In this document: positions 48,923 through 60,383 of the stretch, in pieces
Layout of the letters: every line of letters starts with the position of its first letter
How positions within the stretch are numbered: position 1 is the first letter of the stretch
Assembly: GCA_963695855.1 (NCBI GenBank)
Contig: CAVOHZ010000010.1
Location: 832,001-896,000 of the forward strand
DNA from: an uncultured Nitrososphaerales archaeon
GTDB lineage: Archaea > Thermoproteota > Nitrososphaeria > Nitrososphaerales > Nitrososphaeraceae
DNA length: 64,000 bases
Direction: 5' to 3'
Program-made: the position numbers and the translations under genes
Notes under the pieces: model-generated
Told to the model about the DNA's origin: nothing
Seen by the model: the letters and a program-made list of their open reading frames with translations, nothing else
Databases searched by the model: none

Positions 48923-49924
48923 CTACAGTAAGTCCTTTTCAGCGATTTGCTTTAAAGGCTCTATATTTCCTCCTAGAGGTAGTACCATATTTCTAATATT
49001 TTCCAACATCATTCCTATATACGAATGATTAGGATCTCCTTCTTTTCCAGGTAAATCATCATCACTCAGCGTTTCTACTATCGTTACATTAGCTTCTTTG
49101 GCTATCTGATCTATTATATTAGTAGGAAAAATTTCAGATGCAAATAATGCTGGAATATTCTCAGTACGAATTTGGTCGATCAATCTCGCAATATCTCGGG
49201 CAGAAGGTTCACCAAAGTCAGAAGGTTGTATTGTTCCAATTACAGTCATCCCGTACCTTGGAGCAAAATATGCCCAAGAATCGTGATATGTAAGCAATTT
49301 TCGGTTTTCTTGGGGTATTGTGTCCACAGATTTTCTTATACCCTCATCAAGTTCTTTAAGTAGTTCATTATATCTTTGATAATTTGAGATATAATATTTA
49401 GAATTGTTTGGGTCTAGCTCTATTAATTTATCCGTTGTGATATTTGCAAATTTCATGGCATATTCTACGTTCAACCATAGATGTGGATTAGGATCTCCTT
49501 TTTCTTTTGGAAAACTGAAATCGAAAATCCAGTCATCTTTTGTTACGGTGTTATCTGCTAGCTTTACCAATTGTATTTTGGGATTTTTTGCAATAATGTT
49601 TTTTGCAATATTCTCTATACTTGTTTCAAGATTCAGACCGTCTATGACTATGAGATCGGCATTGCCTATTTTTATTGCATCGGAAGGAACTGGTTCAAAT
49701 GTATGAGAATTTACACCTTCAGGAACCAGACCAACTAGGTTTATTCTTTCTCCGCCGATATTTTTCACAATGTCCGTTATCGGTGCAACTGATGTTACTA
49801 AATTCAATTTTTTCTTGCCTATATCTGAAACTTCTATTTGTTGGCCCAAAACATAGTTGGAAAAAATAAGAATGATCGAGATCAAATGAATAAAGGCAAT
49901 TCCAATACCTGATGATCTATTCAT
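48923..49924 (-). CDS. Metal ABC transporter substrate-binding protein (ZnuA/TroA cluster A-I)
   Basis: SHTFEP, PNPHLW, YHDSW and LSDD give a His3-Asp site. Confidence 0.9.
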   Translation of the reverse strand: MNRSSGIGIAFIHLISIILIFSNYVLGQQIEVSDIGKKKLNLVTSVAPITDIVKNIGGERINLVGLVPEGVNSHTFEPVPSDAIKIGNADLIVIDGLNLETSIENIAKNIIAKNPKIQLVKLADNTVTKDDWIFDFSFPKEKGDPNPHLWLNVEYAMKFANITTDKLIELDPNNSKYYISNYQRYNELLKELDEGIRKSVDTIPQENRKLLTYHDSWAYFAPRYGMTVIGTIQPSDFGEPSARDIARLIDQIRTENIPALFASEIFPTNIIDQIAKEANVTIVETLSDDDLPGKEGDPNHSYIGMMLENIRNMVLPLGGNIEPLKQIAEKDLL

Positions 49925-49946
49925 AAAAAAAATTTAATTGTGGCGA

Positions 49947-49974
49947 GTATTAAAAATTTGCTAAATAGTAATAC
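49947..49974. promoter_or_regulatory. Putative NikR operator GTATTA-N16-TAATAC
   Basis: Perfect half-site inverted repeat with a 16-nt spacer, 23-50 nt upstream of the SBP start; same architecture as the E. coli NikR box GTATGA-N16-TCATAC; nikR is adjacent. Confidence 0.75.
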
Positions 49975-49985
49975 TTTTTCATATT

Positions 49986-50119
49986 AAACCCATCTTAGAG
50001 AACAATTGAATGAAACTAAATTTATATTAAAAATACAACCGTGTTATTCATCAAACCCATCTTAGAGAACAATTGAATGAAACTAAATTTATATTAAAAA
50101 TACAACCGTGTTATTCATC
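49986..50119. repeat. Perfect 67-bp tandem duplication
   Basis: 49986-50052 is identical to 50053-50119. Confidence 0.95.
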
Positions 50120-50192
50120 ATATTAATAAATTTATACTCAGTTGTTACTCATTGATTTACTTTAAATGTATTCATATAGATCAATAATGTTT

Positions 50193-50645
50193 TTATTTAA
50201 TGCCAACATAATGCATCTTTATACTTTTTATACCTCTGTTCTCAGAGATAACTTTCATAAAACTTTTCATTCTTCTTATTTTTCCTCTTAGAATGATCGT
50301 TTCAAGACAATTATCGTGATCCAAGTGTAAATGTGTAGTGGTTACGATTACATCATTATATTCATGCTGACTCTTTATCGATTCTCTATCATTACCGAAG
50401 AGATGATTATCGTATAAAACTACTAATGCACCTGCGCCTTCTTGAACTTCTTTTTGTTCCCATTCATTATTATTAATAAATTCATAAAGTGCTTTTTGAA
50501 TTGCTTTTGATCTATCTGAAAACCCTGCATTATTCATGGATTTATCAAATTGATCAAGTAAAGTAGGAGATAATGAAATGCTAATTCTAGCAACCTGATC
50601 TTTCTTATTACCTTCTTTTTTGTTTTTGTGCAAGTTCTTACGCAA
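50193..50645 (-). CDS. nikR: Nickel-responsive transcription regulator
   Basis: RHH N-terminus RISISL...DRSKAI; Ni site QH...HLHLDHDNCLE. Confidence 0.9.
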   Translation of the reverse strand: MRKNLHKNKKEGNKKDQVARISISLSPTLLDQFDKSMNNAGFSDRSKAIQKALYEFINNNEWEQKEVQEGAGALVVLYDNHLFGNDRESIKSQHEYNDVIVTTTHLHLDHDNCLETIILRGKIRRMKSFMKVISENRGIKSIKMHYVGIK

Positions 50646-51076: not shown

Positions 51077-52192
51077 ATGGGAGTAGCAGATTTTGTGTCC
51101 GGTAATCCGGGATTGGACTTCTTTTATATTCTGTTTAATGGAATTTCTGAAGTTCCACTCTTCAGTTCTCCGGTCACTGGTATCCTGATACTAATTGGAG
51201 TATTTATCGCGTCAAGAAATGCTGGAATAATGATGGTAATTTCTGGTCTAATAGGTGCAGGGATGGCTATATTGCTAGGCGCTCCATATGGACTTGTTGC
51301 ATTCGGTCTTTTTGGTTATAACTCTATACTCACTGGTATGGCTTTTTGGTCTGGACCTTTCGTTAAATCTAACAAGGCAACATTCTTCATATCGATATTT
51401 GGTGCAGCTGTTACGGCAGTAGTCTGGAATGCAATGGGTCATCTGATGGGAGACATGTTTGTTCTACATGGTTTAGCTGAATCTTGGGCAATTCCTGGCT
51501 TTACGTCATCATTCATCTTTACGACTTGGACAATAATGTATGCCACTAAAAGATTTGGACATGATATTTGGCCTGAACCGGCACCCGCGGCACATGAACA
51601 GTTGATAAAAGGTAGTGGAAACCCCGTTCTGGTGCAGGAAGAGAATTTCATATGGACAGCAGGAGAATTTATAAAATCAACGTTAAAAGGTGTTTCCCAG
51701 GTTACATTTGTAGAAAACTGGAAGACTGGAATCTTTTGGGTGGTTGGCCTTACGTTAGCGTTTGAATTGGCACCATTTATAACTGGCCAAGATAGACCTT
51801 GGTGGACAAATGGGTACACCGCACAATGGAATGAATTTTCTCCGCTTTATTTGGGTGGCTTGATGGCGCTTGTTGGTTCTGCAGTTGGAGCTGGAATGGC
51901 AATATTGACAAAATTGCCAACAGGCGAGATAAGAGCAGGTCTACATGGGTTTAACCAAGTATTGGTAATGATTGCTCTCACCAGTTTTCTGCCTCTTACG
52001 CCACAATCTTTCTTTATTGCATTACTTGCCACAGTATCCTGCGGTTTTGTGATGCCGGCGATGCAACGATTCTTTGGAATGTGGGGATTACCAGCATTAA
52101 CAGGTCCGTTCGTTTTCACTGCATGGGTGTTCTTACTAGCGATATCTGGTTTCTCAAATATACCTGCTGGTATCGGCTGGTCACGACCATAG
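51077..52192 (+). CDS. Urea transporter (UT/Utp channel family)
   Basis: Internal twofold repeat GISEV/GVSQV, GLFGYN/GLHGFN and PGFTSSF/LPALTGPF. Confidence 0.9.
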   Translation: MGVADFVSGNPGLDFFYILFNGISEVPLFSSPVTGILILIGVFIASRNAGIMMVISGLIGAGMAILLGAPYGLVAFGLFGYNSILTGMAFWSGPFVKSNKATFFISIFGAAVTAVVWNAMGHLMGDMFVLHGLAESWAIPGFTSSFIFTTWTIMYATKRFGHDIWPEPAPAAHEQLIKGSGNPVLVQEENFIWTAGEFIKSTLKGVSQVTFVENWKTGIFWVVGLTLAFELAPFITGQDRPWWTNGYTAQWNEFSPLYLGGLMALVGSAVGAGMAILTKLPTGEIRAGLHGFNQVLVMIALTSFLPLTPQSFFIALLATVSCGFVMPAMQRFFGMWGLPALTGPFVFTAWVFLLAISGFSNIPAGIGWSRP

Positions 52193-52229: not shown

Positions 52230-52820
52230 GTGAAAAAAATGAACATACAGGAATTTAATCAATTTTTGAAAATTACAAGGGAAGGAAGAGAGAATTCTGA
52301 TATCCAAAAAATCAAGATGTTTATAAATTGGTGCAATAAAAACAACTACGAAGAAATAATTCTAAGACTTAGTTCCGAGAAAGATGCAGGTTTAGGAGAT
52401 AACCGCATAATAGACTTTACTACAAAACGAATTATTATTACCAAAAAAAGTTTTATGAAAAAATTTCTTGATATTGGTTATGTAGCTGGGATGGGTCCAT
52501 TTCCATACATAATATTATCCGAAAAAAAATACACATCAAAAATAAAGGATTCAGCAAAAGTAGACGTCAGAAAAATTATGAACAAATCAGATTCAGAATA
52601 TTCGATAGATTATGATTTAGTAAATGAAGTTATTGTAAGCCAAGGCTCTAGTTCTGTTGTTAGAAATATGTTTGGCTCATTTATAACAAAAAATTACTTG
52701 ACTATAATTGCGGATCAGAGAAGGTATGAGTATATTTTGCCAGCTAAGAAGAATGGTGATTTTTATAGAATGACTCATTGGCTTCAGGTTCTTCCAGTAA
52801 AGGTTTCAGTCGTATATTGA
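52230..52820 (+). CDS. Hypothetical protein between the urea channel and ureA
   Basis: 196-aa ORF with GTG start; family not recognised. Confidence 0.6.
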   Translation: MKKMNIQEFNQFLKITREGRENSDIQKIKMFINWCNKNNYEEIILRLSSEKDAGLGDNRIIDFTTKRIIITKKSFMKKFLDIGYVAGMGPFPYIILSEKKYTSKIKDSAKVDVRKIMNKSDSEYSIDYDLVNEVIVSQGSSSVVRNMFGSFITKNYLTIIADQRRYEYILPAKKNGDFYRMTHWLQVLPVKVSVVY

Positions 52821-53290: not shown

Positions 53291-53665
53291 ATGATTCCAG
53301 GCGAGTATATTTTGTCTTCGGAGCCTGTAATCTGTAATCCAAATTATAAAACTGTCAAGGTTACTGTGAAGAATACTGGTGATAGGGCATGCCAGATAGG
53401 ATCTCATACACACTTTTTTGAAGTAAATAGGGCTCTAGATTTTCCAAGAGAACAAACATATGGATACAGATTAAACATACCTGCTGGCACTTCAATTAGA
53501 TTTGAACCGGGTGATTCACGAGAAGTAGAGTTATGTGAATTGGGTGGAAAACGAATTATATATGGATTTAACGGTCTGACGATGGGGGGTCTCAATTCCT
53601 CTGTGATAAAAGATGCTGCCATGGAAAAAGCGACGAAACTTGGGTACCGTGGGATGAGCAAATAA
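53291..53665 (+). CDS. ureB: Urease beta subunit
   Basis: MIPGE, NTGDR..QIGSH.HFFEVN and IPAGTSIRFEPG motifs. Confidence 0.97.
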   Translation: MIPGEYILSSEPVICNPNYKTVKVTVKNTGDRACQIGSHTHFFEVNRALDFPREQTYGYRLNIPAGTSIRFEPGDSREVELCELGGKRIIYGFNGLTMGGLNSSVIKDAAMEKATKLGYRGMSK

Positions 53666-53687: not shown

Positions 53688-55415
53688 ATGGTTTTGAAAA
53701 TAACTAGAAAACAATATACTGACCTCTTTGGACCGTCAAAAGGTGACAAAATAAGACTTGCAGATACTGACATAATTATTGAAGTTGAAAAGGACTTGAT
53801 CTCCCAAGGAGATGAATGTGTCTTTGGTGGAGGCAAAACGATAAGAGATGGACTGGCGCAAGCATCAGGTATTACCAATGCAAACGGTGCTTTGGACCTT
53901 GTCATAACAAATGCCGTAGTTTTAGATCCTATACTGGGGATTGTAAAGGCAGACATTGGTATCAAGGATGGAAAGATAGCAGGAATAGGAAATTCAGGTA
54001 ACCCATATACTATGGACCATGTTAATACGAACATGATTGTCTCAGCATGTACAGAGGCAACTGCGGGTGAACATACAATTTGTACTCCTGGTCACTGGGA
54101 TACACACGTACACATGATCTCTCCACAACAATACATGGATGCAATTAGCAACGGAATCACTACTATGATAGGGGGTGGAACTGGACCTGCAGATGGAACA
54201 AATGCAACAACATGCACACCAGGGTCCTTCAATATTAGCAGGATGATGGAGAGTGTAGAGGATATCCCAGTAAATTGGGGTTTCTTGGGCAAAGGAAATG
54301 ATTCACATCCATCACTTGCCACACAGATAGAACAAATTGAAGCTGGGGCATGTGGATTAAAAGATCATGAGGACTGGGGAACAACTGCTGCAGTTTTAGA
54401 TGCATCTCTTAAGGCAGTAGACATGACTGATACACAATTAGCTATACATACCGATTCAATAAATGAATGTGGTTACGTTGAAGACACAATTAATGCGATA
54501 GATGGTAGGACACTCCATACATATCATACTGAGGGTGCAGGTGGTGGACATGCTCCAGATATTATGAAAATCGCAGGTGAGCAGTTTGCACTCCCCTCAT
54601 CAACTAATCCAACTAGACCATATACTGTGAATACGGTTGATGAACACCTTGATATGCTGATGTTTTGTCATCACCTCAATCCAGCAGTACCCGAGGATGT
54701 GGCTTTTGCAGAGTCAAGAATCAGAGCAGAAACAATTGCTGCAGAAGATGTATTGCATGATGAGGGAGTGTTGAGCATGTATTCATCTGATAGCCAAGCT
54801 ATGGGCAGAATTGGCGAAGTTGTAATCAGGGCATGGCAAACTGCTGACAAGATGAAGAAAATGAAAGGAAGATTGACAGAAGAAACAGGAGACAATGATA
54901 ATCTTAGAGCTAAAAGGTATATTGCAAAGACTACCATCAATCCTGCTATCACGCATGGTGCAGCTGATATCCTTGGATCTCTAGAAGTAGGAAAATATGC
55001 AGATATCGTTATGTATCAAACACCATTCTTTGCAGCCAAGCCAAAAATGATTTTTAAAGGTGGCTTCATTGCTTGGTCAATCATGGGTGATCCTAATGCG
55101 TCCATCCCAACGCCTGAACCTGTCTATTATAGGCCAATGTTTGGTGCTATGGGTAAGGCGGTAAAAAGGACGTCCTTGACTTTGTCATCAAAGGCAGCCG
55201 TAAACCTTGGAGTGAGAGAAAAACTAGGATTAGAAAAGGTTCTACATCCTGTACACAATTGCAGGAACATTGGCAAAAAAGATATGGTCTGGAACGATAA
55301 AACTCCAGAGATTACGATAGATCCTGAGACATACGAGGTAAAACTGGACGGAAAAATAGCTACAGTTGACCCTGCAAAAGAATTATCCCTAGCACAAAGA
55401 TACTTCATGGCATAA
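53688..55415 (+). CDS. ureC: Urease alpha (catalytic) subunit
   Basis: [33 protein letters not shown] flap and SSDSQAMGR motifs. Confidence 0.98.
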
Positions 55416-55440
55416 GAGATAAACTATACCGACATCTACT

Positions 55441-55466
55441 ATTTTTTATTTTCATTTTCTTTTTTA
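55441..55466 (+). terminator. T-rich archaeal terminator-like tract after ureC
   Basis: ATTTTTTATTTTCATTTTCTTTTTTA, followed by TATA-like GATATATA about 25-30 nt before the next ATG. Confidence 0.45.
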
Positions 55467-55500
55467 TCGAGATATATACCTCATAGTAGGATAATATTTT

Positions 55501-57057
55501 ATGTCTAATCCAAATTATGGAGTTTGGAGACCAATTGCAGAAAACGTAGAGTTTAATGCTCTTGAATCTAATTCACAAGCAGTAATGGCTGTTGCAGAAA
55601 CAGTCAGAACAACTTTAGGTCCAAAAGGTCTCGATAAACTCTTGATAGATCAAGCTATGAATCGACACGTTTCAAACGATGGTGTTACCATTTTACTCTC
55701 TTTAAGGGCCATACATCCAGTTGCAAGAATGATAGTCGAAATTGCAGAAAGACAAGAACAGCTAGTCGGTGACGGTACAACTACTGCAGTTGTAATGGCT
55801 TCTGAAATGATAAAAGAAGGGAAGAGACTAGTGAAGGAACTAGGAGTTCATCCAACCAAAGTAGTGGAAGGTATAGATAACGGTGTTAAACAAGCATGTA
55901 AACTTTTAGAAAAACAAGCAAAGAGTATATCATTGAATGATGACGAGCTTGAACAAGTAATAAGAACTTCTCTCAATTCTAAATTAGATGGTGCAAATTT
56001 ATCTACATTGGTTATCAACTCCATTAGAACCATTGGAGAAAATTCTGTCTATAACTCATCATTTGATTTTGGTAAATCAATTAAAGTGATAAGAAAAACA
56101 AACGTGTCTGACACAGTATTCAATGGTGTTGTCTTGGAAAGAAAAAGACTCGATACAGAGATGCCATTAAAAATTGATAAACCTAAGATAATGATAGTAA
56201 AACTAGACTTAAAACCAGTTAAAGAATCATGGTTGAAAGAAAATAATCGTTATGAAGAAATACTGACCATGGAAAATGATAGACTTTCAAAGTCTAAAAA
56301 GATAGTTGATGAAATTGTGTCTACTGGAGCCAACACACTTTTGATAGCCTCTCCAGAAATAGATGAGGTTATAGAAAATCTTTTAGTGTCTAAAAAAATT
56401 TTTGCTGTCAGGATCTCTTCTGATGAAATTGAATTTCTGTCTCGATATCTTGGAACAAGGCCTGTGAGAATGATAGATGATCTACAAGGGGACAGTATCA
56501 TTGGAAATGCTGGCTGCATTCAAGAAAATGAAGATGAGGGATTAATTTACCTTGAAAATGGTTCTGAAAAAAATATTGTTTCCATAATAGTATCAGGAAC
56601 TACTAAAGAGACATCCCTTGAGAGGTGGAGATCAGTAATAGATGGAGTTAATGCTGCTGAAGCCGCCCTTAATAAAGGTGTTGTAGCTGGAGGTGGAGCA
56701 GCAGAATTACATGTTATTGAAAAGTTAAAAGGTTTGAGGATGAAAGGCCTAGAGCAGGTAGGAGTTGAGGTAGTAGCGTCAGCACTTGAAAGCATAATGA
56801 GACAAATTTTAACAAATGCTGGTTTTAATGGTCTAGAAAAAGTTATGGCTGCAAAAGCATCAAAACAAAATATTGGTGTTGATATAGATAGTGGTGATCT
56901 AGTGGATATGTGTGAAAAGGGGATTATCGATCCTTTATTGGTTAAAATAATGGCCCTCGAAGCTGCTGGAGAAATTTCAAAATCTGTCCTTCGGATTGAT
57001 AGAAATCTTGCCGCCGAAGACCTAAGTCAACAGGCCGTTTCTGAAACAAGGAGGTAA
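55501..57057 (+). CDS. Cpn60/TCP-1 superfamily chaperonin, divergent (group III-like features)
   Basis: [37 protein letters not shown] and IIDP..VK motifs; no GGM tail. Confidence 0.9.
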
Positions 57058-57066
57058 AAGAGAGAA

Positions 57067-57459
57067 GTGCAAATTCGTCACTGTGTACAAGAAGATAATG
57101 TAAATGAACACATGATAATCAAGGATCCCACAAAAATAAGACACGTAGTTATTTTTGGAGGAAAGATAAAATCAATGTCAGGTTTTATTGATCCTGCTTC
57201 TCATCTTAATATTGATTATCCACTACACAAGGTAACAAAATGTGTTATTGCGAAGAAATTTGAGTTAGGTTCTGATATTCTTTTCTCTGATAACGGGTTT
57301 ATCTTTGCCTTGGTGATGTCTTCACATTTTGATAATTATGGATACCTAGACTATACAAAAAATCTTTCTGAAATGATTGAAAAAGTAAATAATCTTAAGA
57401 CTTCTAAATCAGTTAAAAAAGTATTGGAACAAGAAAATACAAGAGAGCAGGTTGAGTAA
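57067..57459 (+). CDS. Hypothetical His/Cys-containing protein in the urease accessory operon
   Basis: GTG start with a GGAGGT Shine-Dalgarno sequence at the chaperonin 3' end; tightly packed between cpn and ureE. Confidence 0.75.
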   Translation: MQIRHCVQEDNVNEHMIIKDPTKIRHVVIFGGKIKSMSGFIDPASHLNIDYPLHKVTKCVIAKKFELGSDILFSDNGFIFALVMSSHFDNYGYLDYTKNLSEMIEKVNNLKTSKSVKKVLEQENTREQVE

Positions 57460-57467
57460 TAAAAAAA

Positions 57468-57983
57468 ATGATAACTATCAATAATATAATTGGTAATTTA
57501 ACGAAAGACTTTAAATTAAAAGAAAAATATGAATTGATGCTTAGGAAAGGTAACTGTGAAAAAGTAAAAATCAATAGGTTAGAATCCCAAAGGCTCAGAA
57601 TGAGAAAGAATACAGACAAGGGATCTGATGTTATTTTTGTTTTTGACCATAATCCACAACTTCGACATGAGGATGTTGTATTTTCAGATGATGAGAAGAT
57701 GATTATTGTTGAATTGGAACCAGAATACGTCGGTATAATTACATTGAAAAATTATAATAATAACGAAGATATGTTTTCAATGTCGATAAAGATTGGTCAT
57801 ACACTGGGAAATTTACACAGACCAATTCAGGTAACAAAAAATCAAGTATATTTTCCATTACAAGCAGAGACAGAAATTGAAATGCTTACAAAACTCTTTT
57901 CATCATTCAGTCAATTTCTTGATATCAAAACTGATTATATGGTCTTTGAACCAGAAGAAGGACACCATATTCATGAACATTGA
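57468..57983 (+). CDS. ureE: Urease accessory nickel chaperone
   Basis: R.R..TDKG, GHTLGNLHRP and C-terminal HHIHEH motifs. Confidence 0.92.
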   Translation: MITINNIIGNLTKDFKLKEKYELMLRKGNCEKVKINRLESQRLRMRKNTDKGSDVIFVFDHNPQLRHEDVVFSDDEKMIIVELEPEYVGIITLKNYNNNEDMFSMSIKIGHTLGNLHRPIQVTKNQVYFPLQAETEIEMLTKLFSSFSQFLDIKTDYMVFEPEEGHHIHEH

Positions 57984-58737
57984 TGCCATCGATCTTCAGT
58001 TAGAAGAGATAAGCATTATGCAGTTAGGGGACTCTTTTTTTCCAACGGGGATGTATACGACCTCAAGTGGATTGGAGTCTCTCTATTACAATAGAAAGAT
58101 AAAAGATAAACAAAAAATTTTAGAATTTATTTCCGTATCTCTGAAATATCAAATAGGTCCAGCAGACTGTACAGCACTCTCTAACGCTTATCATTTTGCT
58201 AAAATTTCAGATTTGCAAGGCGTAATAGAGATAGACAAATTACTTTTTTCTATGAAGTTAGTTAAGGAGATACGAGATGCTTCGACAAGGTCCGGAACAC
58301 AATTGTTAAGTTGTGTATCAAGTTTCGTTAATGAAAGTATTACCGACGATGTCGCAACAAATTTAATTCATGATAATATTCTTACTCCTGCCAAACTGGT
58401 TTCATCCTATTATAATGCGATAAAGAATAAAACTGCTCATGGTATTTATCCAGTTGCATTAGCGGTAGCGTCAAATGCATTAAACATAAGAAAAGAAAGG
58501 GCTTGTATGCTTTTATTGTACGGATTTACGGTAAGCATAGTAGGTGCGGCACTTAGATTGGGAATGTTACAACATTTTGAAGGACAGCAAATAATTCATT
58601 CTTTAAAACCAGTGATGATAGAGGTTATAAAAACAAATATTGATAGACCTTTTTCTCATATGTGGCAATTTTCTCCTGGAATCGATATTTTGCAGATTAC
58701 ACATGAGAGGATGGATTCAAAAATGTTTATTACATAA
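57973..58737 (+). CDS. ureF: Urease accessory protein F
   Basis: QLGDSFFPTG.Y..SSGLE, AALRL and HE....KMFIT motifs; start placed at ATG 57973. Confidence 0.92.
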   Translation: MNIDAIDLQLEEISIMQLGDSFFPTGMYTTSSGLESLYYNRKIKDKQKILEFISVSLKYQIGPADCTALSNAYHFAKISDLQGVIEIDKLLFSMKLVKEIRDASTRSGTQLLSCVSSFVNESITDDVATNLIHDNILTPAKLVSSYYNAIKNKTAHGIYPVALAVASNALNIRKERACMLLLYGFTVSIVGAALRLGMLQHFEGQQIIHSLKPVMIEVIKTNIDRPFSHMWQFSPGIDILQITHERMDSKMFIT

Positions 58738-58758: not shown

Positions 58759-59424
58759 ATGACTGTTAAAAGAATTCCTCGAGTTGGTATCGGTGGACCT
58801 GTTGGATCAGGAAAAACAATGTTAATTGAACAATTTGTTCCTTTATTAAGTCAAAAAGGATATAAGACGGCAATTGTCTCCAACGATGTAGTATCGAAAA
58901 TAGATGCTGATCGGATGCGAAGAAACTTGGCATCCGAACAAGGACTACTACCAGAAAGTCTGGTAATAGGACTTGCTACAGGCGGATGTCCACATACTGC
59001 CATAAGGGAGGATCCTTCTATGAATATTTCTGTGGTTGAAGAAATAGAATCCAAACATAATGAAGATCTTGATTTGATAATCATTGAAAGCGGTGGTGAT
59101 AATATAACAACAACGTTTAGTCCTGCATTGGCTGATTACTTTATCTATATAATAGATGTCTCTAGTGGAGATAAATATCCCAGAAAACGTGGTCTTGGAA
59201 TAGAGAGTTGTGATCTTTTGGTGATTAATAAAATTGATCTTGCTCCACTTATAGGTGCAGATCTTAAAGTAATGGAAAATGATGCTATTATCGTCAGAAA
59301 AAACAAACCATTTCTATTTGTTAATTGTAAAACTGGTCAGGGAGTGAAAGAAGTTTCAGAACATATTATAAAAGATGTTTTGTTTGAGGCACCCCCAAAA
59401 ACTCTTCTAAAGAAAAACAATTAG
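58759..59424 (+). CDS. ureG: Urease accessory GTPase
   Basis: GGPVGSGKT, TGGCPHTAIRED, ESGGDN and NKIDLA motifs. Confidence 0.97.
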   Translation: MTVKRIPRVGIGGPVGSGKTMLIEQFVPLLSQKGYKTAIVSNDVVSKIDADRMRRNLASEQGLLPESLVIGLATGGCPHTAIREDPSMNISVVEEIESKHNEDLDLIIIESGGDNITTTFSPALADYFIYIIDVSSGDKYPRKRGLGIESCDLLVINKIDLAPLIGADLKVMENDAIIVRKNKPFLFVNCKTGQGVKEVSEHIIKDVLFEAPPKTLLKKNN

Positions 59425-59447: not shown

Positions 59448-60383
59448 ATGATACCTCTTGATCTAGATTATTTCATCCCAAAGGATATTCCCAGAGAGGT
59501 TTTATCTTATGAAGCAGTTTTGACTCAACTAGGGGTAGGTAAAGCGGGAAAGCTTGGAACATTGATTTTGTCCCTTGAAAAGGATCAAAATCTAAATAGA
59601 ACAATAATAAGAGAACAGTACTGTAAAGTTCCTCTTTTTGTTCAACGTGCGCTATACCTTGAAGAAAGTCTGCCATCTATGGCATATATCTATATAATGT
59701 CTCCTTCTGGAGGAATTCTCCAAGGTGACCGGTATAGAATAGATATCAAGATAGGTGATAGTGCATTAGCTCATATGACCACCCAGGGAGCTACAAGACT
59801 TTATAGAATGGATAAAAACTATGCAACTCAGATAGTCAATATAACTTTGGATAGCAACAGTTATTTTGAATTTGTGCCCGACCAGATAATACCCTATAGG
59901 GATTCTAGGTTCTATCAATCTGTAACTTTGAATATTCATGAGGAGGCTACCATGATATATTCTGAAACAATAGTGCCAGGACGTATGGCTATGGGTGAAT
60001 ACTTTAATTATGATATTTGTTATTTAAAAATGATTGGAAAGAACCAAGAGGGCATATTACGATTTATTGATACTGCATTGTTACAACCCAAGAAAAATGA
60101 TCTAAAGATCCTTGGAATTCTTGAAGAATTTAATATGTTATGCAATACGTATATCCTCACACCACCCAGATATGTTGAGAAATTGAATGATAGTATAAAT
60201 GATAAAATATCTCTATTTCCAGAGGTCAGAGGTGGATGCTCTGTGATGCCTGATGAATCAGGAATAGCTATTAGAATCTTGGGAAACACAATAGATAGAT
60301 TAAAAGAGGTTACATATTCTATATTAGGGATGTGTAGACATGAAATCCTAAATGCGAAGTTTAGTGGAATTCGCAAAAACTAA
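59448..60383 (+). CDS. ureD: Urease accessory protein D/H
   Basis: PSGGILQGD, TTQGATRLY, PDQIIPY and PGRMA.GE motifs. Confidence 0.93.
   Translation: MIPLDLDYFIPKDIPREVLSYEAVLTQLGVGKAGKLGTLILSLEKDQNLNRTIIREQYCKVPLFVQRALYLEESLPSMAYIYIMSPSGGILQGDRYRIDIKIGDSALAHMTTQGATRLYRMDKNYATQIVNITLDSNSYFEFVPDQIIPYRDSRFYQSVTLNIHEEATMIYSETIVPGRMAMGEYFNYDICYLKMIGKNQEGILRFIDTALLQPKKNDLKILGILEEFNMLCNTYILTPPRYVEKLNDSINDKISLFPEVRGGCSVMPDESGIAIRILGNTIDRLKEVTYSILGMCRHEILNAKFSGIRKN

Follow-up and report, generated by a model that had tools for sequence, protein, structure and literature searches.

A urease-linked chaperonin and a small histidine-bearing protein family in the urease module of a soil Nitrososphaeraceae archaeon

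The urease module and its two additional genes

We analyzed a 64,000-nucleotide stretch of DNA from an uncultured Nitrososphaerales archaeon (hereafter the window; contig CAVOHZ010000010.1 of assembly GCA_963695855.1, positions 832,001 to 896,000), focusing on two genes between ureC and ureE of its urease module, one for a 518-residue chaperonin (ure-cpn, here cpn) and one for a 130-residue protein (orf130). The chaperonin belongs to a clade tied to urease genes in archaea and anammox bacteria and found only beside them in the genomes searched, whereas the orf130 family belongs to urease rather than to the chaperonin. The best-supported reading, with functions deduced from sequence, is that the two encode a putative urease-dedicated chaperonin and a His-bearing small maturation protein. 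The window has a G+C content of about 30% and is part of a 1.8-Mb contig; the genome measures 3.55 Mb with 99.9% completeness, and the closest named relatives of both proteins are in metagenome-assembled genomes (MAGs) of Nitrososphaeraceae. The module and its surroundings comprise the following features.

55501..57057, plus strand: cpn, urease-linked lidded chaperonin of 518 residues, ATG start (PF00118, 354.3 bits)
57067..57459, plus strand: orf130, 130 residues, GTG start; predicted beta-rich domain (residues 1-92), then a C-terminal helix
52918..53220, plus strand: ureA, gamma subunit (PF00547, 152 bits)
53291..53665, plus strand: ureB, beta subunit (PF00699, 138 bits)
53688..55415, plus strand: ureC, alpha subunit, of the 'type A' form with cpn and orf130 downstream (TIGR01792, 890 bits; UreC tree)
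55416..55500, plus strand: ureC-cpn spacer of 85 nucleotides (nt), with T-runs and then a TATA-like ATATATA; possible terminator and internal promoter
57468..57983, plus strand: ureE (PF02814 and PF05194)
57877..58737, plus strand: ureF (PF01730, 114.7 bits, match beginning at residue 75), TTG start as listed
58759..59424, plus strand: ureG (TIGR00101, 229 bits)
59448..60383, plus strand: ureD (PF01774, 155.5 bits)
51077..52192, plus strand: UT-family urea transporter (PF03253, 180.5 bits)
52230..52820, plus strand: orf196, between the urea transporter and ureA, of no known family
50193..50645, minus strand: NikR-type nickel-responsive regulator (PF08753, 77.7 bits; NF002169, 106 bits)

The plus-strand order is thus UT urea transporter, orf196, ureABC, cpn, orf130 and ureEFGD. 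A first-pass annotation, made from the DNA letters alone, had described a complete 518-residue chaperonin with intact ATPase motifs between ureC and ureE, followed by a 130-residue frame with six His and two Cys, short gaps and a Shine-Dalgarno site, all of which our analysis bore out: the gaps measure 9 nt between cpn and orf130 (57058-57066) and 8 nt between orf130 and ureE (57460-57467), and GGAGG lies 12 nt 5' of the orf130 GTG. Orthologues of orf130 start alike in 17 of 17 fetched loci, two codons before an invariant (I/V)RHC (M-x-(I/V)-R-H-C), and because the start and the N-terminus are so conserved, we take the GTG start to be correct. For ureF, the longest frame, with TTG at 57877, shares 107 nt with ureE (57877-57983); since its Pfam match begins only at residue 75, the real start probably lies further downstream.

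The order ureC-cpn-orf130-ureE was identical in all 17 fetched loci, and the wider order, from transporter to ureD, was kept wherever the contig allowed, with orf196 absent from the three loci of family f9. Three loci end at a contig edge, with ureAB missing in L042, and ureD missing and ureG unseen in L036. The urea transporter is syntenic in 15 of the 17 (L034-L050), L037 having a short remnant and L042 a contig end at this point. By tblastn, orf196 was found in 12 of the 14 loci of family f1 (L034-L047), not in L037 and with L042 ending before its position, and in none of the three f9 loci. It had no Pfam or NCBIfam match, and its nearest clusters in the ESM Atlas are unnamed Nitrososphaerota proteins. 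The urease module of this soil Nitrososphaeraceae archaeon is thus a conserved one.

Just upstream of the module, on the minus strand (48923-50645), a gene for a ZnuA/AztC-like substrate-binding protein of a metal ABC transporter stands with the NikR gene. The two may form a nickel-supply and control unit; a ZnuA-like gene flanks the urease module in four of the 17 fetched loci (L036, L044, L045 and L046).

The T-tract and TATA-like box described after ureC in the first-pass annotation are present as T-runs and an ATATATA in the 85-nt spacer, the latter about 25 nt before the cpn ATG, and most of nine aligned orthologous spacers likewise show a T-run and then an AT-rich box. In addition, we compared the locus with contigs from four soil and rhizosphere RNA libraries of two studies, which are mostly 95-99% alike and thus derive from relatives, in libraries that may contain DNA and at depths that cannot rank genes. 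One contig (56716-57154) bridges cpn and orf130 and another (57292-57539) bridges orf130 and ureE, while a 2.2-kb contig that covers ureA to ureC stops at 55403. In three runs, contig ends at 55403, 55424 and 55429, around the ureC stop codon, show a sequence that we take to be Illumina adapter. No listed RNA contig bridges ureC and cpn, although holes in contig cover prove nothing. A scan for sigma-70 promoters and hairpin terminators gave nothing above shuffled sequences, with models that are not applicable to archaea. The recurring spacer pattern and the contig ends hint weakly that a transcript ends behind ureC and that cpn opens a second unit, so that the earlier proposal of a separate cpn-orf130-ureEFGD transcription unit is weakly supported.

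Features, phylogeny and distribution of the chaperonin

The cpn product matched PF00118 over residues 31-501 with 354.3 bits, against a cut-off of 34.3, placing it in the Cpn60/TCP-1 superfamily. The sequence includes [15 protein letters not shown] together with the RSVIDG Asp, and in a seven-row alignment with thermosomes G90-T94 (GDGTT), G397-A400 (GGGA) and the catalytic D381 were invariant. The GGM tail is absent in the alignment, in agreement with the earlier description. Its own genome encodes three PF00118 proteins, two canonical thermosomes (642 and 618 bits) and cpn (354 bits), and cpn falls below every NCBIfam thermosome cut-off (TIGR02339, 309.1 against 671.1; NF041082, 303.3 against 450; NF041083, 296 against 400).

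The first-pass annotation had called the lid segment short and divergent. Divergence was confirmed, but shortness was not: as judged by alignment only, the lid-spanning window measures 50 residues in cpn, 52-53 in 24 thermosomes, 48 in 11 group III proteins and 35 in GroEL, suggesting that cpn has a built-in lid (helical protrusion) like that of group II. The window around the nucleotide-sensing loop is 17 residues long in 16 of 16 full-length urease-linked rows, compared with 20-22 in thermosomes, 14 in group III and 13-14 in GroEL. The Lys of this loop (Lys161 in cpn) is kept in the archaeal urease-linked copies and replaced by Arg in the anammox copies, as in group III. In An et al. 2017 (PMC5635000), the defining traits of group III are lid deletions and a lost nucleotide-sensing loop, shortened by six residues and with Arg155 in place of Lys165. 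The sequence features of cpn, including the sensing loop, fit a position intermediate between thermosomes and group III.

For comparison we used a genuine group III gene from a Bacillota MAG, a genome that also has an orf130-type urease locus. This thermosome-like gene encodes 517 residues, lies directly after hrcA, scores 454.6 bits to the structure 5x9u and has relatives in 79 of 201 genomes of that phylum. Location among heat-shock genes (the hrcA/dnaK operon) is regarded as a mark of group III chaperonins, and whereas the Bacillota gene, the only genuine group III gene whose neighbours were scanned, sits after hrcA, cpn sits in the urease operon. The motifs that had prompted the label 'group III-like', GPKGLD, A-L-x-S/T-N and AGEI..LRID, are indeed common to cpn and genuine group III sequences, unlike thermosomes, so that this part of the claim stands.

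Against the PDB, the cpn protein (P0001) scored 184.6 bits to 5x9u and 195-230 bits to thermosomes, its best match being 9rwq (285 bits). The entry 9rwq, titled 'Ancestral Group II Chaperonin (ACII)', matches the genuine group III protein at 600.7 bits, and 9rwp does so far less. By sequence, 9rwq resembles an ancestral group III construct, and its title may be shared or wrong. We rejected bit scores as an arbiter of group III membership, since an entry titled group II gave 600 bits to a group III protein.

The placement was judged on a tree of 58 rows and 523 columns (LG+C20+F+G4 with posterior mean site frequencies, PMSF), rooted on six GroEL sequences, for which 67 of 125 collected candidates were dropped to cut redundancy and which includes no eukaryotic CCT. 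The urease-linked chaperonins formed a clade of 17 rows with support 100/99, made up of 11 archaeal rows of the type found in ammonia-oxidizing archaea (AOA), a subclade of five anammox-type rows and one broken copy from a methanogen order, located beside ureD. Two other clades exclude cpn: the 24 thermosomes (100/98), among them the two from its own genome, which bears out the earlier view that cpn is not an ordinary thermosome, and the 11 group III rows (100/100), which, with the intermediate loop, speaks against membership in group III. A grouping of the urease-linked clade with group III received support of just 50/21, and constraining the urease-linked clade to join the thermosomes cost 1.41 log-likelihood units, which the approximately unbiased (AU) test did not reject (p 0.408). 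An earlier quick tree of 75 rows gave the pairing with group III a support of 87 by the Shimodaira-Hasegawa-like approximate likelihood ratio test (SH-aLRT), on long branches. Neither the tree nor the AU test singles out one branching order of the three clades; on these sequences, cpn is neither a thermosome nor a group III member but belongs to a third lidded clade of its own.

The thermosome clade also holds a paralogue from another urease locus. At L052:4264-5979 (minus strand; genome G152) there is a second ureABC set, of type B and without accessory genes. A 571-residue paralogue precedes it on the other strand, falls in the canonical thermosome clade and has a His-rich C-terminal tail instead of GGM; a NikR gene and a ZnuA-type gene adjoin.

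To describe the distribution of cpn we used an order sample of 301 genomes, counting cpn at E<=1e-100. It was present in 46, orf130 in 47 and ureC in 106 (each count including as one positive the genome G257, flagged unpublished), and 44 genomes had both cpn and orf130. By family, orf130 occurred in 42 of 73 f1, 3 of 11 f9 and 1 of 9 f4 genomes and in none of the 73 f13 and 74 f10 genomes, from which cpn was likewise absent. In 43 of the 44 genomes with both genes, cpn lies directly upstream of orf130 on one contig, beside a type A ureC; in the 44th (G194) pieces of the two stand on separate short contigs. Three genomes have orf130 only, located at the first bases of a contig, and two have cpn only, as a 192-residue piece at a contig end (G179) and as a remnant (G045). 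Two kinds of ureC can be told apart in this sample: type A (870-906 bits, model positions 1-567), with cpn and orf130 downstream, and type B (915-949 bits), without them, which is found in f13 and several f1 genera; three genomes hold both. Across 42 other genomes with a near-full-length match, cpn is 68-98% identical.

Two of these genomes merit separate description. At L051:7578-10790 (G045) lies a decayed urease locus, in which a 244-residue cpn remnant matching residues 220-449 is followed by intact-looking ureF, ureG and ureD; the locus has no ureABC, orf130 or ureE, and no ureC was found in the genome. At G179:C111:3-2381 a type A ureC lies together with the cpn piece, 99% identical to that of the window although the genome belongs to another genus. 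The contig ends just past the cpn match and may be mis-binned or recently transferred.

Outside the archaea, a scan of named genomes found a 522-residue relative, 44% identical to cpn, in a Brocadiaceae MAG, after ureF-ureG-ureD and before a sodium:solute symporter gene; its best matches outside its own group are the archaeal urease-linked copies (44-48% identity). In a sample of 121 genomes of the anammox class, cpn was found in nine and ureC in nine, with both in eight, the genome with ureC only having that gene cut at a contig end. The remnant in G045, genome G580 in the anammox sample and cases at contig edges aside, cpn occurred in no genome searched that lacked ureC. The proposed tie to urease is supported by co-occurrence with one ureC type in archaea and anammox bacteria. 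In a Methanomassiliicoccaceae MAG (L191/L214), a gene of the urease-linked chaperonin clade adjoins ureD on its downstream side, in opposite orientation, and a frameshift has broken it into pieces of 352 and 170 codons.

The orf130 family and its urease lineage

Searching named genomes with a small alignment yielded 61 orf130 loci, 33 of them of the archaeal type (ureC-cpn-orf130). Six are of the anammox type (ureABC-orf130-ureEFGD-cpn; Scalindua, Brocadia, Subterrananammoxibius and two other MAGs). Twelve are without any chaperonin (Chloroflexota, Actinomycetota including the isolate Raineyella antarctica, an Egibacteraceae MAG, Limnocylindrales and Methanoregulaceae), one has the broken chaperonin on the other strand after ureD (Methanomassiliicoccaceae), and nine are cut short or partial. 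A urease gene adjoins orf130 in 60 of the 61, which supports orf130 as a conserved, His-bearing, urease-linked protein, and orf130 stands directly after ureC in 24. In six of the chaperonin-free loci less than 200 nt separate orf130 from ureF, leaving no room for ureE. One locus, L180 (G628, flagged unpublished), is counted among the 12 and among the six and is included in the UreC tree and the alignments below. At least one named strain carries orf130, R. antarctica LZ-22 (locus L159), whose genome has just two PF00118 genes, both GroEL-type. Because orf130 follows ureC in bacteria without the chaperonin, it is not a chaperonin-specific partner.

In a sample of 201 Chloroflexota genomes, ureC was found in 30 (one of them G666, flagged unpublished) and orf130 in four, adjoining ureC in all four; the search scored just 22 first-look candidates per genome, and some copies may be missed. 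We also built a quick UreC tree of 41 rows, with one partial row dropped and the root not inferred. All orf130-linked UreC sequences fell in one clade (SH-aLRT 98), which also holds the archaeal type B, sister to type A (97), and two Chloroflexota ureases in which ureF directly follows ureC; eight other Chloroflexota ureases lie outside it. With these eight as outgroup, the simplest reading is that orf130 would be old in one urease lineage and was probably lost several times.

Two loci have a different surrounding. In a Scalinduaceae MAG (L154) ureABC-orf130 is followed by no urease accessory genes in the next 4.5 kb, and in an archaeon MAG (L183) NikR and a transporter come after ureBC-orf130 in a locus devoid of accessory genes.

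The protein has His at positions 5, 15, 26, 46, 54 and 87 and Cys at 6 and 59. Among 30 archaeal sequences the invariant residues include R4, H5, C6, N11, H26, S38, G39, D42, H46, N48, H54 and C59; over 47 rows, H5, H26, H46 and N48 remain invariant, and R4, G39, D50, H54, A81 and G92 nearly so, which gives the family four invariant or nearly invariant histidines. The 270 relatives at E<=0.01 include none with a Pfam domain or a functional name, and a profile searched against 1.84 billion cluster representatives gave 69 matches at E<=0.001, many from high-G+C organisms. No Pfam family was found for orf130 at E<=0.001 and no NCBIfam match; 28 members had no meaningful Pfam match (E<=1), and such source names as the family carries are 'hypothetical' or 'uncharacterized'. 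Compared with UreE, orf130 gave an hhalign probability of 0.7% and no match to PF02814 or PF05194.

A first, full-length structure model reached a predicted local distance difference test score (pLDDT) of 81.6, with the other four models at 46-67, and placed a long helix (residues 96-126) after a beta-rich domain. Residues 1-95, modelled with a deeper alignment, gave a beta-rich domain with a pLDDT of 96.3 (five models, 95.5-96.3) and a predicted template modelling score (pTM) of 0.85. Foldseek searches of the PDB found no convincing match for the first model (best E 2.7) or for the domain (best E 1.1). VIA wide, an all-against-all alignment, matched only the C-terminal helix of the first model and, for residues 1-95 against 48,161 chains, gave a single row at Z>=2 (1o12_B; Z 2.3, root-mean-square deviation 3.8, 57 residues aligned). 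A sequence search of the PDB gave a chance-level match only (E 0.025), and the ESM Atlas gave weak leads to trypsin-like peptidase clusters at 0.86-0.88, under the 0.9 line. For a predicted model, an absent fold match is no proof of a new fold. Joint folding of UreA, UreB and UreC with orf130 gave an interface score (ipSAE) of 0.00 in two runs without controls, which says nothing either way.

Proposed roles and comparison with known systems

Taken as a whole, the findings are probably best explained by a dedicated urease chaperonin together with a small His-bearing maturation helper. In such a scheme, cpn would be an ATP-driven, lid-bearing cage dedicated to the folding or assembly of urease, not a general stress chaperonin, and its client would most likely be UreC or the apo-enzyme before nickel insertion. 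The orf130 family belongs to one urease lineage, its genes usually standing immediately behind ureC whether or not the chaperonin is present. Its local member would serve urease maturation independently of the chaperonin, with the handling of metal (nickel) by a putative His cluster as its most likely task, and would work beside UreE or replace it where ureE is missing. We infer client identity, metal binding and physical contact from the observed gene order, conservation and co-occurrence and from the computed phylogeny and fold prediction.

Several points weigh against this interpretation. Every functional step is deduced from gene neighbourhood and conserved residues. The link of cpn to urease is patchy: its position varies, after ureC in archaea and after ureD in anammox bacteria, and most bacteria with orf130 do not have it. 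Both genes are absent from the AOA type B ureases (in 33 of 73 f13 genomes, among others) and from the two Chloroflexota ureases, all of which belong to the same UreC lineage, and therefore neither gene is essential for urease as such. In orf130, C6 is confined to archaeal members, H15 and H87 are unconserved, and the window's copy has Asn where 90% of 30 close relatives have His90. Finally, the RNA contigs come from the relatives, 95-99% alike, and from libraries possibly containing DNA.

We considered three other explanations. The first, which we regard as rather unlikely, holds that orf130 is not a metal carrier but a small enzyme, a regulator of urease (active-site flap, carbamylation) or an extra structural subunit. 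In 24 loci it stands directly after ureC, which suggests that it is produced along with the structural subunits and not with the accessory genes; a catalytic site could just as well be built from the invariant His/Asn/Asp set; and the weak fold leads point to small beta domains of amidohydrolases such as NagA (Z 2.3). However, no family or fold match supports an enzyme, and orf130 occupies the place of ureE where that gene is missing.

Less probable still is the proposal that orf130 is a metal-binding co-factor of cpn, an analogue of a nickel-binding GroES, the two working as a pair. In archaeal loci orf130 always comes after cpn, at a distance of 9 to about 100 nt, an RNA-library contig bridges their junction, and they occur together in 44 of the 49 order-sample genomes with either, the five exceptions being contig ends or a decayed locus. 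Nevertheless, the partnership put forward in the first-pass annotation was not supported, in that form, by the wider survey: orf130 occurs without this chaperonin in 12 bacterial or methanogen loci and in the whole R. antarctica genome, and ureEFGD separate the two genes in the six anammox-type loci. Moreover, the built-in lid segment of cpn would need no GroES-like cap, and orf130 has no match to Cpn10 (in Pfam at E<=0.001, with none relevant at E<=1 among 28 members).

We give little credence to the last alternative, in which cpn is a general or stress paralogue merely riding in the urease locus: extra thermosome copies are common in archaea, and Zhong et al. 2020 (PMC7265257) interpreted a further thermosome, phylogenetically distinct and located close to the urease genes in a hadal MAG, as an adaptation to pressure, but the same cpn clade stands in urease operons of two domains, is absent from ureC-lacking genomes save the cases named above, and is 68-98% identical across families and therefore under strong constraint.

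A broader extension of the preferred reading, a dedicated chaperonin with a separate His-bearing helper, is conceivable but doubtful. In this extension the urease-linked chaperonins would be a fourth, client-dedicated group, as deep as group III, and the orf130 family an ancestral urease maturation factor with a fold unseen in solved structures, handling nickel through four histidines and able to replace UreE. The two would then make up a separate route of maturation in a single large urease lineage, which spans ammonia-oxidizing archaea, anammox bacteria, Chloroflexota, Actinomycetota and some methanogens.

The maturation of urease, described with four helpers (UreD, UreE, UreF and UreG), serves as a textbook example of how a metal centre is assembled. 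Soil and marine nitrifiers, like anammox bacteria, drive the nitrogen cycle and draw on urea as a major source of nitrogen. The chaperonin clade, which we found exclusively next to urease genes, would offer a rare prokaryotic case of a chaperonin dedicated to one client, and a conserved four-histidine protein of unmatched fold, following ureC in two domains, would be a new and directly testable accessory factor. The two genes may also account for difficulties that could arise in producing such ureases in active form in standard hosts.

The presence of a chaperonin in urease loci of ammonia oxidizers is not new in itself, as the first-pass annotation had suspected. In the passages of Abby et al. 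2018 (PMC5797428) on the chaperonin, an Hsp60 homolog (arCOG01257) is described as a conserved component of urease loci in Ca. Nitrosocaldus cavascurensis and in Nitrososphaerales, not found in Nitrosopumilales, and is proposed to stabilize urease, with Evans 1992 cited for urease stabilization by Hsp60. Gene family and position are the same as for cpn, and our counts of 0/73 (f13) and 0/74 (f10) fit the absence reported there. The same passages give no phylogeny relative to group III and mention no bacterial copies, and those on chaperonins and thermosomes mention no small downstream reading frame. Our literature search on urease gene clusters and thermosomes returned that paper only; it found no paper on anammox urease, including that of Scalindua, with a chaperonin or thermosome, and the available portion of PMC4084955 (Nitrososphaera, urease, Hsp60) holds nothing on the cpn and orf130 genes. 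New here are the separate clade that includes anammox copies, its close tracking of urease, and an orf130 family independent of the chaperonin.

Among known systems, the nickel metallochaperones of urease maturation, UreE and HypA, resemble orf130 in being small His-bearing proteins; orf130 likewise stands among urease accessory genes and takes the place of ureE in six loci. Unlike UreE, to which it has no sequence relation, orf130 has no family or fold match, and its putative metal role is drawn from conserved His residues and gene context. GroEL/GroES is known to aid urease, and HspA of Helicobacter pylori is a nickel-binding GroES; the likeness lies in the idea of a urease that needs a chaperonin. 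Those proteins, however, belong to group I and are encoded apart from the dedicated clade, whereas ure-cpn represents a separate lidded clade inside the operon. Group II thermosomes share with cpn the Pfam family, the built-in lid, the sensing-loop Lys and the catalytic Asp, but cpn is only about 30% identical to the thermosomes of its own genome, is about 10 residues shorter at the N-terminus, has no GGM tail and has a sensing loop three residues shorter. Group III, represented by Ch-CPN of Carboxydothermus hydrogenoformans (PDB 5X9U/5X9V), is like ure-cpn lidded, thermosome-like, present in bacteria and without the GGM tail. The two share the three motifs given above (the last as AGE(I/V)..LRID) and a three-residue lid gap relative to thermosomes. 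They differ in that group III forms its own clade (100/100) and has a sensing window of 14 residues with Arg, compared with 17 in ure-cpn, with Lys in the archaeal copies.

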